This document shows, piece after piece, positions 5,226 to 14,746 of a stretch of 14,746 bases of DNA (the first letter of the stretch is position 1; each line of letters starts with the position of its first letter). The translations under genes were made by a program, and so were the position numbers. A model generated the notes under the pieces. That model did not search any database. It was not told the origin of the DNA and was given only the letters and a program-made list of their open reading frames with translations. The DNA is from Candidatus Helarchaeota archaeon (GTDB lineage: Archaea > Asgardarchaeota > Lokiarchaeia > Helarchaeales > RDOG01), in NCBI GenBank assembly GCA_029838215.1, contig JALGVI010000083.1:1-14746 (forward strand). Direction: 5' to 3'.

Positions 5226-5546
5226 CTAAGAGATTATCATGTTCTTCTCTAAAGCATCTATTAAAAGAGAAGACTTATCTTTCATTCGATGAAATTCATC
5301 TGGCGTGTAACAAATAATATCAACGTGTTTTGGAAAATTGATTAATTTCAGTACCATGGACATTCTTAACACGAAGGGAATTCCCTTGAATTCATCAGAT
5401 ATGATGATGACATCAATATCGGAACCTTCCATTGCTTCACCTTTAACTCGAGACCCAAAAAGGATTATCTTATCTGGTTTCAATCGCTTTTTAATTATTG
5501 GGAGCGCTTCTGCCTTGAACTTCTTGATCCATGGATCATTCGTCAT
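5226..5546 (-). CDS. Minimal nucleotidyltransferase (MNT), antitoxin partner of HEPN
   Basis: IILFGSRVKG...GSDIDVIIIS (GS-x10-DxD) with later VDII, 106 aa; overlaps the HEPN gene by 11 nt. Confidence 0.9.
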   Translation of the reverse strand: MTNDPWIKKFKAEALPIIKKRLKPDKIILFGSRVKGEAMEGSDIDVIIISDEFKGIPFVLRMSMVLKLINFPKHVDIICYTPDEFHRMKDKSSLLIDALEKNMIIS

Positions 5547-5940
5547 CTTTTTCTTTCAACTCTGCATAATATTTTTCTAAATTCTTAAAAATACTCTTTG
5601 CGTGTTTCAATTTTGCCTTTACGATTTCCTCATCATACTCCTCATAGGGGACATGTTCCGCAATATCTGGATATCTAGCAAACATGTAATCAGGAACGAA
5701 ATCCATTAAATCTTGAAGCATGCTTTCAGGTAAATGTAAAATTCGCCCTAACTCATCTAAATAATGGATTTTGGGTATTTTCATTCCTCTTAAAGCTATT
5801 ATGGACTTAAGTAGTTTCTCAACGGCTTGATGAATTAGAAATGCAGCAATATCATAGCCTTCAATAGTTATATTTTTCTCCGCCATCTCTAAATCGTGAA
5901 CTGCTTGTTTAAACCATTTCACTGCTACATCCTTATTCAT
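5536..5940 (-). CDS. HEPN-domain protein (MNT-associated toxin)
   Basis: W..QA..DL..A, AAFLIHQAVEKLLKS, IPKIHYLDEL and ARYP are typical of MNT-linked HEPN proteins. ATG 5940 sits behind GAAGGAC, which makes it more likely than TTG 5955. Confidence 0.88.
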   Translation of the reverse strand: MNKDVAVKWFKQAVHDLEMAEKNITIEGYDIAAFLIHQAVEKLLKSIIALRGMKIPKIHYLDELGRILHLPESMLQDLMDFVPDYMFARYPDIAEHVPYEEYDEEIVKAKLKHAKSIFKNLEKYYAELKEKDDE

Positions 5941-6151
5941 GTTTTTGTCCTTCAAATAACTCTTGGAAATCCGTTAAAAGAATAGATGATCAATGAAGAT
6001 TATAATTTAATCGGGATCGCGACCATCCTCATTTCACATACAACTACTTCGGAATCACAAGGAATTGAAAAATTCTCTTGAATATTTAAAAAAATTTAAA
6101 ACAGCAGTTGAAAAGGGAGTAATCACTTTAGATTTGATATGATTTTTAAAT

Positions 6152-8396: not shown

Positions 8397-10904
8397 TCAC
8401 TCCGTGATGTGATTTTGTTGCATGTAATCAGTTAGGACCTTCACACCCTGTTCACTAAGCGAATAGAATCGGAAGTTTGAGGATTCTGCTTGCACGATCA
8501 GTTGAACTGCCATTCCAATATTGAGAATTTCTTCAATGATAATGGGATGTAGATTCGTGCGGGTCTGAATGCCATCTTTTCGGGATTGAAGGGAGTCAAG
8601 TAAATCTTTCATGACGAGATACGGAAAATAAAACTGTGGACCTTCAGTGGGCATTCCAAAAACGTAGAAATATTCTTCCAATGCAGTTCGTTGTGGAACT
8701 TGAGTGGTTTCAGGTGAGAATGCAATTGAGTTTTGAACGCGTATTTTGAGATCGTCATCCGTGAAATGTTCGGAGAGATCCGGAATGGAAAGGAATACGG
8801 GAAATGCTTCAAGAACATCAGGACGCTTGAGCAATGCTTGGGCTGGTGGGAGGTTTTTCAAGTATGTTATGCGTGGTTTTTGCTTTTTATTATGAGGATC
8901 GATCCCAAGAAGCGGAAGAAGAGTCTTGAGGTCGAAAGGATCTCGAACAGTCGTGGAAAAAATCGTTTCAAAATGTGCAAGAATGTGCGAAGGAAATGCT
9001 TCACTCGCGTGCGGAAGATCTTGAACCAAGCAAGTTCGTGTATGACGACAAAGAGTAAAAATCTTGTCGAATACCTTACAAGGTTTTCTGAAATCGCCTT
9101 GGAAGACTTGTTCAACATCGTTATATATGATAAATCCTTGCAATCCTTGATCTTGAAGAGTCAAAAGAATCTTGAATAGCAAGAGAAGACTGGCGGCTAA
9201 ATGATCGTTATAATAATGTTCGTCGATTTCGATAAGGATGGGTTCACGACGCACGAGTTGTTTCATTGGAATCTTTGTATTCTGCAGGGCGGAAGCGATA
9301 TATCCCTTTGACCAACTATCAAAAACGTGATGTAATCGTTGATATTCGCGGGCATCTCTTATATCCAAGTCTTTCACGTGGATCGCATTCAAGAGCTCCT
9401 GATTGATCTGACTTGGACCAGTATTGGGCGTTGAATTGCCAACAGTAACTTGCTTGTGTAACAAATCCATTATCTTATTCTTGAGGAGCGTGAGTGTTTG
9501 TGGCGTTAATGGAAATAGAGTTTCGATGATTTTTAGAGCGCATGTAGCATAATATTCAGGATCAATTCCTTCAGTATCGAAAAATCCGAAACTGGCATCC
9601 TGTCCTAGGCGCAATACCAAGAGTTGGGGAAAGATTTTAGCAAGATCGCGTAAGCGTTTCTTTTTAGTAATGATGATGCACGGTTTTTCCGCCTTTAACA
9701 AGTTATATAGTAGACATTCAGCAATACGTGAGCGGCGTTCGGGATGATCTCCCGAAATCAAGATGGAACCTTTAAGATGAGCTTCTAAGAGTCCAACTTT
9801 GGTTTCTGATACGGCCCAAGTAGGATCATAAGTCGTGCCGAAAGGAGTAAAATCATATCCCAAGTTAGTGGGCACGATGAACTGGGCATTGGGCACGTGT
9901 GAAAGTGACTTTTTAATGGTATTAGAAAGACGAAAAACGTTATTTATAACTTCACGCCCGGATAAGAGGAATTTATGCTCGGATTCAGGAAATGCGGCAG
10001 TCTTAATGAAATGAATGAGCTGAGGCTTTTTGAAAGGGACCACCTTAGACTCACGAAAACTAGAAGACGTGATTGCAAACAATCGCTGCCCTTGTAACGA
10101 TACTTGTCGCCAGAGACCTGCCCGAATGTCCGAGAAAATGCCATTAAACTTGCTCTGGACTGCCATCGTGGTGAAATAAATCGCCCCTTTCCAGACACCT
10201 GCGTGATCGTTTTTTATTATTTCGACATGCTTTTTCAAGTTTTTCTTAGAAATTTTTTTGCGTTCTCTCCAGGAAAATAGTGTTTTATAATTGTCTGGAT
10301 TCAGCGGTGCAATGTCTAACCAATAACTAAATGGAATGCGAGCTCCATAAAGTTGATCCACGACATTCTCAAATTTTCCCTCGATTTTAGATGGAAATTC
10401 CGTGATTTCATAGACTTTCATTCCATAGATCTCTTCATCACTCTCAAAAAATAAAACATCACCCTTTCCCATCCCATTAGAATTGTCGGGCTTCCAGAAA
10501 TAACAAGCCTGGGGTCGCAGGGGAGATATTCTTTCAATATCTTTTACTGTTGAAAGCCATGAAACCAAACTTGACCTGATATGAGGTTGAAGAAAGAAAA
10601 TTAAGGAACCAAAAATCGATAAAAATAAGGAATATCCCAATACCAGACTCAAGTAGATGTTTACGAAACCAAATAAACAAATGGGAATGAGGAATGAAGC
10701 TAAAGCAATACATCCTGAAATTATTAAACCATTAAAAGATACTAGAGGATTAGAAACAAATTTACGCTTTTTCCAAGTAATGCTAGACTTGAAAGTATTA
10801 AGTCCGGGAAATTCGCCCATCTCAAGACCGGCTTTAAGAACTTGTCGCATTAAAGCTGCTTGAGAAAAACGAGAATTCCCATTGAAATTCATCTTTTTTT
10901 GCAT
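8397..10904 (-). CDS. Membrane-anchored HerA/VirB4-like (DUF87-type) P-loop protein with degenerate catalytic motifs and C-terminal winged-helix-like segment
   Basis: Two TM helices (about aa 55-105). Secondary-structure spacing matches FtsK-HerA cores: SILISGDHPERRS at the Walker A position, KPCIII strand, FIIYNDVEQVF at the Walker B position, LKNLPPAQALL...AFPV at the C-terminal strand. ATG 10904 lies 6 nt after TGAGGTG, so it is preferred over GTG 10913. Confidence 0.6.
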   Translation of the reverse strand: MQKKMNFNGNSRFSQAALMRQVLKAGLEMGEFPGLNTFKSSITWKKRKFVSNPLVSFNGLIISGCIALASFLIPICLFGFVNIYLSLVLGYSLFLSIFGSLIFFLQPHIRSSLVSWLSTVKDIERISPLRPQACYFWKPDNSNGMGKGDVLFFESDEEIYGMKVYEITEFPSKIEGKFENVVDQLYGARIPFSYWLDIAPLNPDNYKTLFSWRERKKISKKNLKKHVEIIKNDHAGVWKGAIYFTTMAVQSKFNGIFSDIRAGLWRQVSLQGQRLFAITSSSFRESKVVPFKKPQLIHFIKTAAFPESEHKFLLSGREVINNVFRLSNTIKKSLSHVPNAQFIVPTNLGYDFTPFGTTYDPTWAVSETKVGLLEAHLKGSILISGDHPERRSRIAECLLYNLLKAEKPCIIITKKKRLRDLAKIFPQLLVLRLGQDASFGFFDTEGIDPEYYATCALKIIETLFPLTPQTLTLLKNKIMDLLHKQVTVGNSTPNTGPSQINQELLNAIHVKDLDIRDAREYQRLHHVFDSWSKGYIASALQNTKIPMKQLVRREPILIEIDEHYYNDHLAASLLLLFKILLTLQDQGLQGFIIYNDVEQVFQGDFRKPCKVFDKIFTLCRHTRTCLVQDLPHASEAFPSHILAHFETIFSTTVRDPFDLKTLLPLLGIDPHNKKQKPRITYLKNLPPAQALLKRPDVLEAFPVFLSIPDLSEHFTDDDLKIRVQNSIAFSPETTQVPQRTALEEYFYVFGMPTEGPQFYFPYLVMKDLLDSLQSRKDGIQTRTNLHPIIIEEILNIGMAVQLIVQAESSNFRFYSLSEQGVKVLTDYMQQNHITE

Positions 10905-10941
10905 GCATGCCACCTCAGGACATAAAAAATATTGAATTCAA

Positions 10942-10968
10942 GAAATGCAAGCACGAAACTTGCATTTC
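10942..10968. promoter_or_regulatory. Perfect 10-bp inverted repeat upstream of the HerA/VirB4-like gene
   Basis: GAAATGCAAG 10942-10951, spacer CACGAAA, CTTGCATTTC 10959-10968. Lies between the TATA-like TATTAAAAG (minus strand) and the SD. Confidence 0.5.
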
Positions 10969-10974
10969 CTTTTA

Positions 10975-11010
10975 ATACATGTTCGCAAGGTTGGGTGCTT
11001 CAACCATAGC
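10975..11010. repeat. Left copy of a long inverted repeat (IR-L)
   Basis: 10975-11001 ATACATGTTCGCAAGGTTGGGTGCTTC. Its reverse complement matches 14288-14314 at 26/27; looser similarity continues to 11010 (GCTATGGTT versus GCTACGGC). Confidence 0.9.
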
Positions 11011-11326
11011 TTGCTATTATTCAATCTTCAAATGAAGGTAATGAGTGTTCCAATCTCATATTTGCAAGGCACGGATGCACCCCGATTGAGGATCGAAAAA
11101 TTGAGATGAGAAAAAAAGGAGAAAATGTCGGAACTTTCTTCCTAAAAAAAACAACGCTCAAATCATTCTTTTAGACATTGAATGGAGTTTGTAGTGCGTG
11201 ATAAAAAAATTATGCTTACGTTCTTTTTGATCCTGAAGGGTAACCATTAACCTCAATATTTTCGTCTAAATACCATTATTTCTTGGAATAGAACTTGATT
11301 TAATTGTTGAAGTGAAAGATCATCTT

Positions 11327-11479
11327 GGTGCGGAAAAATCCCGCCGAGCAGCGTGTATTACAAAACGATACGGGGTTCGGGTCGAAGCAACCCGGATTTC
11401 GAAATCCAAACCTTCGGGTTTGGTCTCTACTTTTTTAAAATACACGCTCCCGGTGGAACCCGCGAGGGTCTCCACCCCC
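11327..11479. ncRNA. Unidentified highly structured element (candidate ncRNA or DNA hairpin cluster)
   Basis: About 54% GC by manual count in AT-rich flanks. A 10-bp perfect stem 11350-11359/11439-11448 encloses three abutting hairpins (11378-11394, 11394-11407, 11406-11423), with extra hairpins at 11330-11344 and 11452-11476. Confidence 0.55.
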
Positions 11480-11544
11480 ATTTTAAAAAATTTGGCTAGT
11501 TGGCTCAAAACACAAAAATTAATTAAAAAATACAGTTAGAATTC

Positions 11545-12932
11545 TCATTTTCTTCTAAATTTATTCTCTTGAAATTTCGGACGTTTTTTCAACTGGTTCA
11601 TTAAATAAAAGCCCAAGATTATCCCTGCAATGATCAATACGCTGTACTGGATCATTTCACTGAACGGTAGTAAGAGAGGAGGGTATTTAATTGTTGCAAA
11701 ATCGAATTCTGAAAGTAGATAAGAAGAATTTGTGTAATATACTTGATTACCCTGTTGGTATTCGGCAGAATCCCACAAATCCCCATCCTGCCAAATCCAA
11801 TGAACCGTATCATTGTAAACGCAAAAGCGAACCGCCCGAGGATCATTTAATGCAGGAAAATAAAGGATTCGTGGCACTTGCCAAGAATTTAAGATCGGAT
11901 CATGATGTAAATAAGTTAAAAAAGAACCCTGCAATAACCAATCAATATTAATGATGTTCCAAGTTGGATAAGTCACGTGAATACCTCCGATATCGTCCGC
12001 ATGTAATTGAGCTTGTAGAGGTCTCAATTGGTTCCGCGAATCCTTGATCAAGTAGAAAGATTCAATCCCCGAATCACCAGACCATGTATAAATCGTGAAA
12101 TTATCGAGATCTAACGATGGAGCGTTGGCAATGAAAAGATGACCTGACTCACCACGTTCGATATCAATGAAATGATCGCATGTCGTAGTTTCCATGATGT
12201 CATTTGATACAATGAGCGTGAGATTATCCGTGTAAGTAAGGCTCACGAGTTGTGGTGGTTTGACACCGGTCATCTTGATGTAGATATAAGAAAAAACGTT
12301 CCCCTGTGGTAGAAGCCACGTTTCCGTAAACGATCCTTGCTGCAAATATGTAAACATGTCAATTGAATAAATCAATTTATCACTCAACGTCTCAGCAGTT
12401 AAGTTGTGGGCTACCAAGCGATATTCCACGTATAATCCCGCAGACTTCACGTACGAGAAATAACTAAGGTTATTTGTGGCCCAAAAACCATAATTTTCAT
12501 CAGTCCAACGTGCATGAATTAGGCTTGATGCCACCGTGCAGTTGAACCACGTATCATTATTTTTAAATTAAGAATTCTGGCGTGGGACAAGTACAGAGAA
12601 CCGTTAATGAATTCTTCAGTAATATTGTAGATTAGCGTGGATTGTGTAGTAAATCCACTATCTGATTTCACGCCATGATGCAATCCTCGCTCATCGAGCC
12701 AACATGCTTGCACGTGTCCTGAAGAATTAACGGAAATATCTGGTGAGTAGCTTGCAATATCTCCAAATCCGACTTGGAATGCACGTGATGAAGGCAAGGC
12801 AGAGCTTGAAATGAAACGAGTTGTTACTAAAGGCATTTCTTCAGGTACGAGCAAGATAGTAGAAAAAAAAATGAATGAACAGAATATAAATAGAAAAAGG
12901 ATGAAAGTAGCACGAACACGATGGCGACTCAT
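11545..12932 (-). CDS. Surface glycoprotein with beta-propeller-like repeats, N-terminal signal/anchor and C-terminal TM; split by a -1 frameshift near 12561
   Basis: ORF 12932-12519 carries a signal peptide and SYSPDISVNSSGHVQACW. ORF 12534-11545 continues open upstream to 12567 in the -1 frame and ends in a TM plus basic tail. The joined product is 462 aa with 11 N-x-S/T sequons. ATGA-coupled to the upstream gene, with SD AAAGGTGA. Confidence 0.65.
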
Positions 12933-14257
12933 GAAATCACCTTTACAGGAACGACATTAAGTGGAATCAATTCCTTTCCATGACAAGACGGACACTCGAA
13001 ATTTTTAGCATCCGTAAGAGCCGTCAAGTAATCCACAACGTGAAAGCAATTCTGACACTGGAAATCGAATGCATGTCGTGAAGAACCATTTTCATTCAAG
13101 GATTTATTCCGGTGGCGTGAATTGACAAGAACCATTGCTAAAGTCAGGAAGCGATCAGAAAGTCGATAAAATTCCTTGTGCCGGTCATCCATGAACCCCA
13201 CGATAAAACCCTTGTCTTGAAGGCGATAAAGTGCTTGACGAATGGCAGATGAGGAATAATCAAGGACATCTTCGAACCGTGAATAAGCAAATTCATCCAA
13301 TCCATGCTTCATTTTCAAATAGCAGGCAAATCCGAGCAAGATCAATTCAAGTTCGGAACAGTCGTGATGGTGAAGGATGCGTTGAAGAATGGGATACTTT
13401 AATTTATAAGCATTAAGAGCTTGAAGTGCAAGAAATTTCGCTTGTTGAACCCTAAATGCTTGTTGGAATCTTAAAACCGCAGAGGCGTATAAGTGAAGAC
13501 GACATGTCACGATTCCACTTGCATTGAGCTCATATTTTGTAAGTGAGGATTTAATGTCGTTATAAGAGAGAAAATCTTGTATCTGTCGTAGGAAATTCTG
13601 GGCAGGATCGTGTTGGTTTCGGACCTTCATGGCACGTACGGTTATGGTGCACTTACCCTGGAAGATACGGTTATTCTTGAACATGACAAACACGCGCTTG
13701 GAGTTAAAATAACCCGAAAGAATTTTCTCCTGGAGCGTGATGGGTAAATATTCAGGAATGCGGGGGGTTCTATAAAACGTCTTTCGTGAACCCATGATGG
13801 CATTAAAAAGCTTACAAAGAATCAGGGGAAACGTTATGATATATTCTCTAAAATAACGTCGATGTCGTGCCTTTTTATAGGTCTTACGCCCACGATCATG
13901 ATGTGATACATTAAAAGAAATATTCAAAGAACGTGAAAACGATTCGATAAGTGCAAGTTGACGATGCTGGACGCGTATGATAAATTGTTTTGACCAGAGT
14001 GCATTGCCAAGACATAACCCCAACATGTATGCCATTGTGGGCGTGACCGTCAGGGGAAACGGTAGCGTGAGAATAGTTCCGGGATTTTCTTTCAAGCGAA
14101 CTTTTATCATTCGCTCCTTGACTTTTGGCATTAAATTTGGGAAGAAGCTCGTCCACTTGTCTTTCTCGGAGTTATAATATTGAAAACCCTGCCTGCTCAA
14201 TTCTATCGTGAGCCTTTTTTCGACAGCGGTGGTTTGGTCGTTGTTTTCTCTCTTCAT
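12929..14257 (-). CDS. Degenerate LAGLIDADG domain fused to TFE-alpha-like winged helix and Cys4 zinc ribbon; putative transcription factor
   Basis: AYMLGLCLGNA (aa 76-86) and RIPEY...ILSGYFNSKR (aa 166-188) are two LAGLIDADG-type helices. AIRQALYRLQDKGFI is the wHTH. FQCQNC-x17-CPSCHG is the Zn ribbon. SD GAGGGT lies 8 nt before the ATG. Confidence 0.65.
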   Translation of the reverse strand: MKRENNDQTTAVEKRLTIELSRQGFQYYNSEKDKWTSFFPNLMPKVKERMIKVRLKENPGTILTLPFPLTVTPTMAYMLGLCLGNALWSKQFIIRVQHRQLALIESFSRSLNISFNVSHHDRGRKTYKKARHRRYFREYIITFPLILCKLFNAIMGSRKTFYRTPRIPEYLPITLQEKILSGYFNSKRVFVMFKNNRIFQGKCTITVRAMKVRNQHDPAQNFLRQIQDFLSYNDIKSSLTKYELNASGIVTCRLHLYASAVLRFQQAFRVQQAKFLALQALNAYKLKYPILQRILHHHDCSELELILLGFACYLKMKHGLDEFAYSRFEDVLDYSSSAIRQALYRLQDKGFIVGFMDDRHKEFYRLSDRFLTLAMVLVNSRHRNKSLNENGSSRHAFDFQCQNCFHVVDYLTALTDAKNFECPSCHGKELIPLNVVPVKVIS

Positions 14258-14279
14258 GGTCGCTTACCCTCAAAGGAGG

Positions 14280-14314
14280 GCTACGGCGAAGCACCCAACC
14301 TTGCGACCATGTAT
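14280..14314. repeat. Right copy of the long inverted repeat (IR-R)
   Basis: 14288-14314 GAAGCACCCAACCTTGCGACCATGTAT, the inverse of IR-L. Lies 30 nt upstream of the LAGLIDADG-TFE start codon and abuts TATAAAT. Confidence 0.9.
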
Positions 14315-14517
14315 AAATCATGGACAACGAAGCATCATTTGCTAATCATTAATTCATTGGAGATCCTTAATGATCTTGTCGAAGCTTAAAAAAATACAAA
14401 AGAATGCAATTTTACTGGGGAAGAATCAAATATTTTTCATGAAGATGAAAAAAAATGAAATGCAAGTCTTCTTTTTTTCCGTTGATTATCTTTTTAATAT
14501 TTAGTACATGTAAGAGA

Positions 14518-14746
14518 TTAAAGTTCCAGCCGGGTAAGGAAGAACTCCTTGATTTTTCTCAGTTCTAAAACACGATTACCAACATCTGTCAGTGGCAACA
14601 CGTAAAATCGCCTTTTATCACGATCCCCGTCGTATTTCACGCTTTTTCGGGCTTTTAGATCATTGTACGGCTGATAGTCCATTGAAACAGGTATTATCTC
14701 GGGAAGCGCACTAAGGACTTCGACCAAAAAGGCTTTCTTATGGTCG
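14518..14746 (-). CDS. 3' part of an unknown protein, runs off the right edge
   Basis: The frame is open from 14745 (DHKKAFLVEVLS...) to the stop at 14518, so the TTG at 14727 is probably not the true start. No recognisable motif. Confidence 0.55.
   Translation of the reverse strand, partial: DHKKAFLVEVLSALPEIIPVSMDYQPYNDLKARKSVKYDGDRDKRRFYVLPLTDVGNRVLELRKIKEFFLTRLEL

Follow-up and report, generated by a model that had tools for sequence, protein, structure and literature searches.

A TATA-linked inverted repeat in a membrane and surface gene cluster of Helarchaeales, with a LAGLIDADG-TFE fusion protein as its candidate binder

In the 14,746-nucleotide (nt) contig JALGVI010000083.1 of Candidatus Helarchaeota archaeon (assembly GCA_029838215.1), the whole of which is called the window here, a 30-nt sequence exists in two inverted copies, each of which opens with a TATA-like octamer. 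One copy is located in front of the gene for a 442-aa protein (hereafter, the regulator), in which a nuclease-dead LAGLIDADG fold is joined to a TFE-alpha-like module, and the other is located upstream of the gene for an 835-aa membrane protein with a degenerate ATPase fold (the pseudo-ATPase). We regard the repeat, tentatively and as a possibility somewhat short of probable, as a cis-regulatory element private to this locus and a candidate site for the fusion protein, within a conserved cluster of membrane and surface genes. The region under study is encoded on the minus strand throughout and consists of the 442-aa gene, a surface-protein gene, a 630-nt gap with a GC-rich element, and the 835-aa gene. 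The window is the entire contig C45 of the source assembly (3.62 Mb in 170 contigs; genome G000), and the named relatives of its proteins all belong to Candidatus Helarchaeales.

The left arm of the inverted repeat (IR-L; positions 10972-11001 of the window, plus strand) opens with TTAATACA, and the right arm (IR-R; 14288-14317, minus strand) opens with TTTATACA (14317-14310); the two arms are complementary at 28 of the 30 positions. A preliminary description of this DNA had reported an inverted repeat of 27 nt, and this was found at 10975-11001 and 14288-14314 with one mismatch. The longest exact inverted match is 19 nt, as compared with 12-20 nt in shuffled sequences, which is a weak test, so the significance of the repeat rests on the mismatch-tolerant counts. 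When up to three mismatches are allowed, an 18-nt core is expected to occur 0.01 times (based on shuffles of the window), and a 26-mer is recognized at only two sites in the whole assembly, namely IR-L and IR-R. A chance match is thus ruled out. Both arms are identical in three near-identical sister assemblies, in which their orientation is also unchanged. A partial third copy, which corresponds to the TATA-proximal half (12080-12097, minus strand; 15 nt exact and about 21/30 overall), is found within the coding sequence of the surface protein, and the 13-mer GATTTATACATGG occurs in the genome only in this partial copy and in IR-R. The partial copy shows a C-to-T change in one sister assembly, and the peptide encoded there is moderately conserved.

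When read toward the regulator, IR-R consists of TTTATACA and then 22 specific bases, and it ends at about the expected archaeal start site. Between this end and the ATG of the 442-aa gene (14257) there is a leader of 30 nt, with GAGGG 9 nt 5' of the ATG. The arm includes both the TATA box of the regulator/surface-protein operon and its predicted start site, in agreement with the TATA-to-start zone in which it had been placed previously. The AT-rich end of IR-L, by comparison, could serve as a TATA box in both directions: the minus-strand reading, TATTAAAA, faces the pseudo-ATPase gene (likely start at 10904, at a distance of 66 nt), and the rightward reading, TTAATACA, faces the GC-rich structured element. 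In the leftward reading the 22-nt block is situated just upstream of the TATA box. The earlier placement of IR-L next to a TATA-like tract upstream of the pseudo-ATPase gene also holds. A perfect 10-bp hairpin (10942-10968) lies between IR-L and the pseudo-ATPase start. The AT-rich patches upstream of the two arms (10921-10971 and 14423-14467) resemble each other, in that ACTTGCATTTC and, at 84%, a 19-mer are found in both, though not in the same order; they could derive from a larger duplication or match by chance.

The regulator (12929-14257, minus strand) comprises an N-terminal domain (residues 1-70), the LAGLIDADG fold (70-281), a winged helix (about 326-369) and a zinc ribbon of the pattern CxxC...CPxC (397-429). 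In the AlphaFold2 model, which was built from a seven-member alignment (predicted local distance difference test, pLDDT, of 80.6), residues 70-281 take up the double alpha-beta-beta-alpha-beta-beta-alpha fold, with Z scores of 15.9 for PI-PfuI, 15.0 for I-Tsp061I and 14.5 for I-DmoI, and of 13.1-13.6 for the bacterial protein WhiA; the Foldseek E-values of the model are as low as 8 × 10-6. Both LAGLIDADG-like motifs are recognizable, and mapping of the motifs on the alignment revealed other residues in place of the catalytic acids in each of the seven homologues. Motif 1 reads G-L-x-x-G-[SNT]-[AS], with N or S/T at the catalytic position, and motif 2 reads S-G-Y-F-N-S-K, with K at the catalytic position (S or P in two members). 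With an isoelectric point of 10.6, the domain is strongly basic. Genes for homing endonucleases reside in an intron or an intein or are mobile and free-standing, and the regulator gene shows none of these: it is single-copy, and its neighbors, FEN1 and the surface protein, are conserved across the order.

The C-terminal part leads to a basal transcription factor. A search of 1.8 billion representatives with the regulator-family profile yielded 21 full-length members, followed by a long tail of 160-200-aa proteins that match profile positions about 318-442 only (E-value = 1 × 10-7 to 1 × 10-3), and nine of ten tail proteins checked exceed the cut-off of Pfam TFIIE_alpha (PF02002). The canonical 170-aa TFE is also encoded in the genome, and hhalign matched the regulator profile to it with 94.7% probability (E-value = 5.8 × 10-8). 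PF02002 gave no match on the regulator of the window and matched one of the seven family members at an E-value of 0.12, below the Pfam cut-off; the Pfam matches on the regulator are to winged helices and zinc ribbons only. Based on the fold match, the replaced acids and the TFE-alpha profile hits, the regulator is a TFE-alpha paralogue to which a dead homing-endonuclease fold is joined in front, and the identity of this component is confirmed at the fold level. The LAGLIDADG-TFE fusion recognized in the preliminary description is therefore upheld, by Z scores of 14-16, by the retrieval of TFE-alpha with the C-terminal 120 residues and by the hhalign match.

The regulator is found as a single copy in six of seven Helarchaeales genomes and in none of the 114 other Lokiarchaeia searched, and scans of metagenome contigs yielded no closer relatives. 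Sequence-profile searches of the PDB with the regulator and with the 835-aa protein gave nothing significant. A second PF02002 match in the genome (C149, 407 aa) turned out to be an unrelated radical-SAM enzyme with an N-terminal winged helix, and Rpo7 could not be found in the genome with PF03876. A full-text literature search found no description of a LAGLIDADG fold joined to TFE, and we know of no example of a gene-specific TFE paralogue.

The 835-aa protein (8397-10904, minus strand) has two N-terminal transmembrane (TM) helices, a fold of the HerA/VirB4/TrwB type at residues about 370-720 and a C-terminal winged helix. Foldseek gave E-values of 1.2 × 10-8 to 1 × 10-6 to HerA (4d2i), VirB4 (4ag5) and TrwB (1e9s), and the TM-score (normalized to the target) on the VirB4 C-terminal domain 4ag5 is 0.73, with a model that is moderately confident (pLDDT 60-85 for residues 370-720 and 55.6 overall). 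The Walker A motif, GxxGxGK[ST], is degenerate: in the loop that follows strand 1 of the ATPase fold, as mapped from the model, the sequence is G-D-H-P-E-R-R-S, and it differs in every homologue. In Walker B (hhhhDE) the aspartate is kept and the next glutamate is changed to V, L or A. Since none of the four aligned homologues retains Walker A or the Walker B glutamate, the name "pseudo-ATPase" is fair, and the HerA/VirB4-like membrane pseudo-ATPase proposed earlier agrees with the fold match, the two TM helices and the degenerate motifs. CedB-like clusters are among its language-model neighbors, which can be taken as a lead only.

The surface-protein gene (11545-12932, minus strand) starts so as to overlap the stop codon of the regulator gene. 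Its product contains TM segments at the N- and C-termini and 11 N-x-S/T sequons (4.0 ± 1.7 in shuffles), and thus looks glycosylated and membrane-anchored, as expected of the surface glycoprotein named in the preliminary description. In three sister assemblies the gene is an uninterrupted 489-aa frame, and the homologues in two other genomes are likewise uninterrupted. In the present assembly an 82-nt deletion at 12568/12569 divides it into frames of 137 and 329 aa; the 82 nt are present in the sister locus (L002:11690-11771), and the deletion junction has a 3-nt ATT microhomology. The deletion may reflect either variation in the population or an error of assembly. A programmed -1 ribosomal frameshift had been considered for this gene and is rejected, since the break is private to this assembly and the three sisters are intact; the frameshift layer of the proposed regulation is accordingly removed.

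The linkage of these genes is recognized in related Helarchaeales genomes. In the relative with 40% identity (L025, searched 10 kbp to each side), genes for a helicase, a 156-aa protein, the pseudo-ATPase, a 152-aa protein, FEN1, the regulator and the surface protein run in one direction. In the closest relative (53% identity; two short contigs), FEN1, the regulator and the surface protein are together and the pseudo-ATPase is on another short contig. In three more distant genomes, in two of which the pseudo-ATPase is split, it is 5-8 kbp from the regulator, with FEN1 between or beside them. The cluster neighbors include replication and repair genes (FEN1, a helicase and a weak DHH-domain match). 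In the genome of the window the ancestral cluster is broken, and its other half is found on contig C34 (C34:1-10000, L030), which carries a DEAD/ResIII helicase, genes like those for the 156- and 152-aa proteins, FEN1, a family-B DNA polymerase (PolB) and a 321-aa, N-terminal-only paralogue of the pseudo-ATPase with two TM helices. In short, the regulator, surface protein and pseudo-ATPase are syntenic among these genomes, and the gene cluster is real and conserved within the order. Separately, the 13-nt sequence CATCTCAATTTTT is found without mismatch in the window (11096-11120) and in the 53% relative (L023:100-125; E-value = 0.07), in each some 200 nt 5' of the pseudo-ATPase gene.

Repeated promoters were also found in two of the other Helarchaeales genomes (G001, G003, G004, G005 and G006). 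In G003 the promoter region of the regulator is present three times, ahead of other units: the second copy (about 155 nt, 89% identity) is 8 kbp downstream, ahead of a 47-codon Lys/Glu-rich frame, and the third (73% identity) is on a separate contig, ahead of a gene for a 368-aa GNAT protein (L033:1754-2860). In G001 the region is present twice, and the second copy precedes the orthologous small frame and a gene for an 804-aa TM-anchored protein. The promoter copies are more alike within one genome than to their counterparts in the other, and they are unrelated in sequence to the repeat of the window. The longest invariant run in G003 (23 nt) is situated just downstream of the proximal TATA box, which is the zone occupied here by IR-R. 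In both genomes the second promoter copy is followed by this conserved small frame (about 47 codons; L013:14328-14471 and L015:15514-15657), which starts with MRxxCNL, is rich in Lys/Glu in the middle and ends with W-Y-x-Y-D-E-x-G-W; in G003 it is followed by a longer frame that runs to the contig end. In addition, AGAGTTTAAGCG occurs three times in the G001 locus (L015:9421-9432, 14984-14995 and 15425-15436), two of the copies being 25-50 nt downstream of the repeated TATA boxes, and a close variant is found in G003 (L013:13824-13834); it may represent a shared leader or site.

In archaeal regulators the position of a site relative to the transcription factor B recognition element (BRE) and the TATA box usually decides between repression and activation, and opposite effects at the two arms are proposed on the basis of this rule. 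One sequence-specific factor would bind both arms, and the best candidate is the fusion protein of the locus itself; its very basic LAGLIDADG-like domain would recognize the site, and contacts with RNA polymerase would be made by the winged helix and zinc ribbon of its TFE-like part. At IR-R, on the downstream side of its own TATA box, the bound factor would restrict or gate its own production, and at IR-L, upstream of the second TATA box, it would switch on the membrane component. The TATA box of IR-L may fire toward the pseudo-ATPase gene or, in the opposite sense, toward the structured RNA. Self-targeting binding of the 27-mer is a plausible prediction, and promoter use, start sites, the binder and the sign of regulation are each points that we infer. 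The winged helix of TFE touches the non-template strand just downstream of the TATA box (PMC13502027), in the zone occupied here by IR-R.

Several observations weigh against this scheme. Neither the 27-mer nor an equivalent shared repeat was found at the partial loci L001, L023 and L025 of the two closest relatives, and whole-genome searches of G004, G005 and G006 with the regulator upstream region gave AT-rich low-complexity matches only. As regards the suggestion that repeat and protein should covary, the sequence of the 27-mer does not travel, and what recurs, in G001 and G003, is the design of a repeated promoter. With these two genomes and low-complexity matches in three further ones, the feature exists in three of the eight organisms examined, and the within-genome pattern of promoter copies is what a private promoter signature would give in these three. 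On the plus-strand side of IR-L there is no purine-rich, BRE-like stretch by direct reading. Relatives of the pseudo-ATPase, distant and about 1,250 aa long, are recognized in 34 of 103 sister-family genomes, in which the regulator was not found; linkage of the components within Helarchaeales stands, and their independent occurrence, named earlier as an argument against a common module, is partly observed. Lastly, the dead LAGLIDADG domain of WhiA makes backbone contacts only, and a separate helix-turn-helix reads 5 bp (PMC10243135). This fold hence does not imply a 27-bp site, and the previous expectation of a long site, based on LAGLIDADG enzymes, is weakened by WhiA, the one dead-LAGLIDADG transcription factor studied, whose domain does not read bases (PMC10243135).

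The repeat might instead be a duplicated core promoter (TATA box plus initiator) that is used by TBP, TFB and TFE with no dedicated factor, so that the two units would share expression strength only. IR-R would then drive the regulator operon, and IR-L a plus-strand transcript, maybe with the frames at 11030-11180 and the structured RNA. The conserved stretch, from the TATA box to about +1, is just what a core promoter needs; both arms point into the 3.3-kbp segment between them, and the structured element is downstream of IR-L on the strand with the stable tetraloops. However, a stretch of 22 specific bases between TATA box and start is more than an archaeal core promoter usually requires. 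The structured element, at a distance of 320 nt, has a TATA-like TTTAATT of its own about 25 nt upstream; IR-L has no BRE-like purine run on the plus side, and in the relatives neither an RNA nor a reading frame is conserved after IR-L. We consider this explanation to be somewhat unlikely.

Two further explanations invoke the history of the locus. The repeat could be a neutral scar of the rearrangement by which the pseudo-ATPase gene came to lie behind the surface-protein gene: the genes are ordered otherwise than in the 40% and 53% relatives, FEN1, the helicase and the N-terminal-only paralogue of the pseudo-ATPase are on another contig here, and only this species group has the repeat, whose arms are identical in the three sister assemblies. 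A neutral 30-nt duplication, however, is not expected to open with a TATA-like box in both copies, nor to remain 93% alike when the flanks share at most short AT-rich patches, and the independent repetition of promoters in G001 and G003 speaks for a function; a scar therefore seems improbable. The segment 10972-14317 might also be a non-autonomous cassette, mobile or invertible, with the arms as its terminal inverted repeats and with its enzyme encoded elsewhere, since the arms bracket a 3.3-kbp segment in a cluster that was rearranged in this lineage. But the two arms are the only copies in the genome, Pfam recognized no transposase or recombinase family in the cassette frames, a flanking direct repeat is absent by direct reading, the orientation is the same in all four collinear assemblies, and the cassette genes are conserved, single-copy chromosomal genes in the order. 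A mobile cassette or invertible switch is very improbable and was rejected for want of an enzyme match, extra copies, a direct repeat and a second orientation; the inversion layer suggested in the preliminary description is not supported.

Of the known systems, WhiA (DUF199 of Gram-positive bacteria; PDB 3hyi, 8dy7/8dy9; PMC10243135, PMC3384342) is the closest to the regulator, as both have a nuclease-dead double-LAGLIDADG fold, a helical linker and a C-terminal DNA-binding module. WhiA acts at promoters, and the same role is predicted for the regulator. However, the C-terminus of WhiA is a sigma-4-like helix-turn-helix that reads GACAC, whereas that of the regulator is an archaeal, TFE-alpha-like winged helix with a zinc ribbon; WhiA contacts the polymerase through WhiB, and the two proteins have no detectable sequence relationship (8-15% identity in structural alignments). 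TFE-alpha proteins bind the clamp and stalk of RNA polymerase and help to open promoters. Archaeal TFE-alpha and eukaryotic TFIIE-alpha (PF02002) have a winged helix and then a C4 zinc ribbon, in the same order as in the regulator, but the module of the regulator is C-terminal, with about 320 residues before it (including the LAGLIDADG fold), and the PF02002 cut-off is not reached. Among archaeal regulators, TrmBL1 and SurR repress from sites downstream of the TATA box and activate from upstream sites, and TFB3 of Sulfolobales is an alternative basal factor, a paralogue dedicated to one gene set. The regulator would follow the same logic as these three, although they are not known to use a homing-endonuclease fold or a TFE paralogue. 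The 835-aa protein has the ATPase fold in common with HerA, VirB4 and TrwB, and differs from them in the loss of Walker A and the Walker B glutamate and in its C-terminal winged helix. In the Ced and Ted systems a CedB-type ATPase exists together with CedA/CedA1/A2 membrane and pilin proteins. Comparison of the locus with these DNA-import systems of Thermoproteota (PMC9905601) concerns the ATPase-fold, membrane-anchored 835-aa protein alone.

Archaeal and eukaryotic transcription share TBP, TFB/TFIIB and TFE/TFIIE, and gene-specific basal-factor paralogues are known for TBP and TFB. By a bolder extension of the reading preferred here, which we think unlikely, the regulator would be a promoter-specific TFE-alpha paralogue, in which a domesticated endonuclease domain reads a long, asymmetric element between TATA box and start and the TFE module loads or blocks the polymerase, as part of a private code, rewritten in each lineage along with the protein, that switches a VirB4/HerA-derived apparatus and surface proteins. 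If true, the group of archaea closest to eukaryotes would have a novel means of directing RNA polymerase to selected promoters, and a homing endonuclease would have been domesticated as a transcription factor for a second time, independently of the bacterial WhiA. A membrane VirB4/HerA-like scaffold and surface glycoproteins, encoded with FEN1 and a helicase, may bear on an Asgard DNA-exchange or cell-contact apparatus. The two arms offer a concrete pair of test sites, and the invariant block downstream of the TATA box in G003 is a candidate for a third.

The GC-rich structured element (about 165 nt; about 11318-11482) is tentatively placed on the plus strand by its UUCG and GCGA tetraloops and G-U pairs. 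It folds better than shuffled sequences on both strands (z = -4.4 and -4.0), and the stable UUCG and GCGA loops favor the plus strand. A T6 run within it would be awkward for an archaeal transcript, and TTTAATT is found about 25 nt upstream. Rfam (E-value up to 1) and ARAGORN searches of the window revealed no known RNA family and no tRNA, and a search of six other Helarchaeales genomes and of eight loci with a covariance model of the element gave no relative. The RNA layer of the preliminary description is not supported, and the element is not a conserved partner of the regulator protein.

Directly upstream of the regulator is a gene for a GNAT acetyltransferase of about 370 aa (378 aa; window 14518-14745, L002:8605-9741), and BLASTP gave no similarity between this protein and the 368-aa GNAT protein behind the third promoter copy of G003. 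The left half of the window carries a histidine-biosynthesis operon, a HEPN/nucleotidyltransferase pair, an ERCC4 nuclease gene and a DsbA-like gene. The HEPN/minimal nucleotidyltransferase pair (5226-5955), which is of the toxin-antitoxin type, adjoins the genes for a zinc-ribbon membrane protein and the ERCC4 nuclease.

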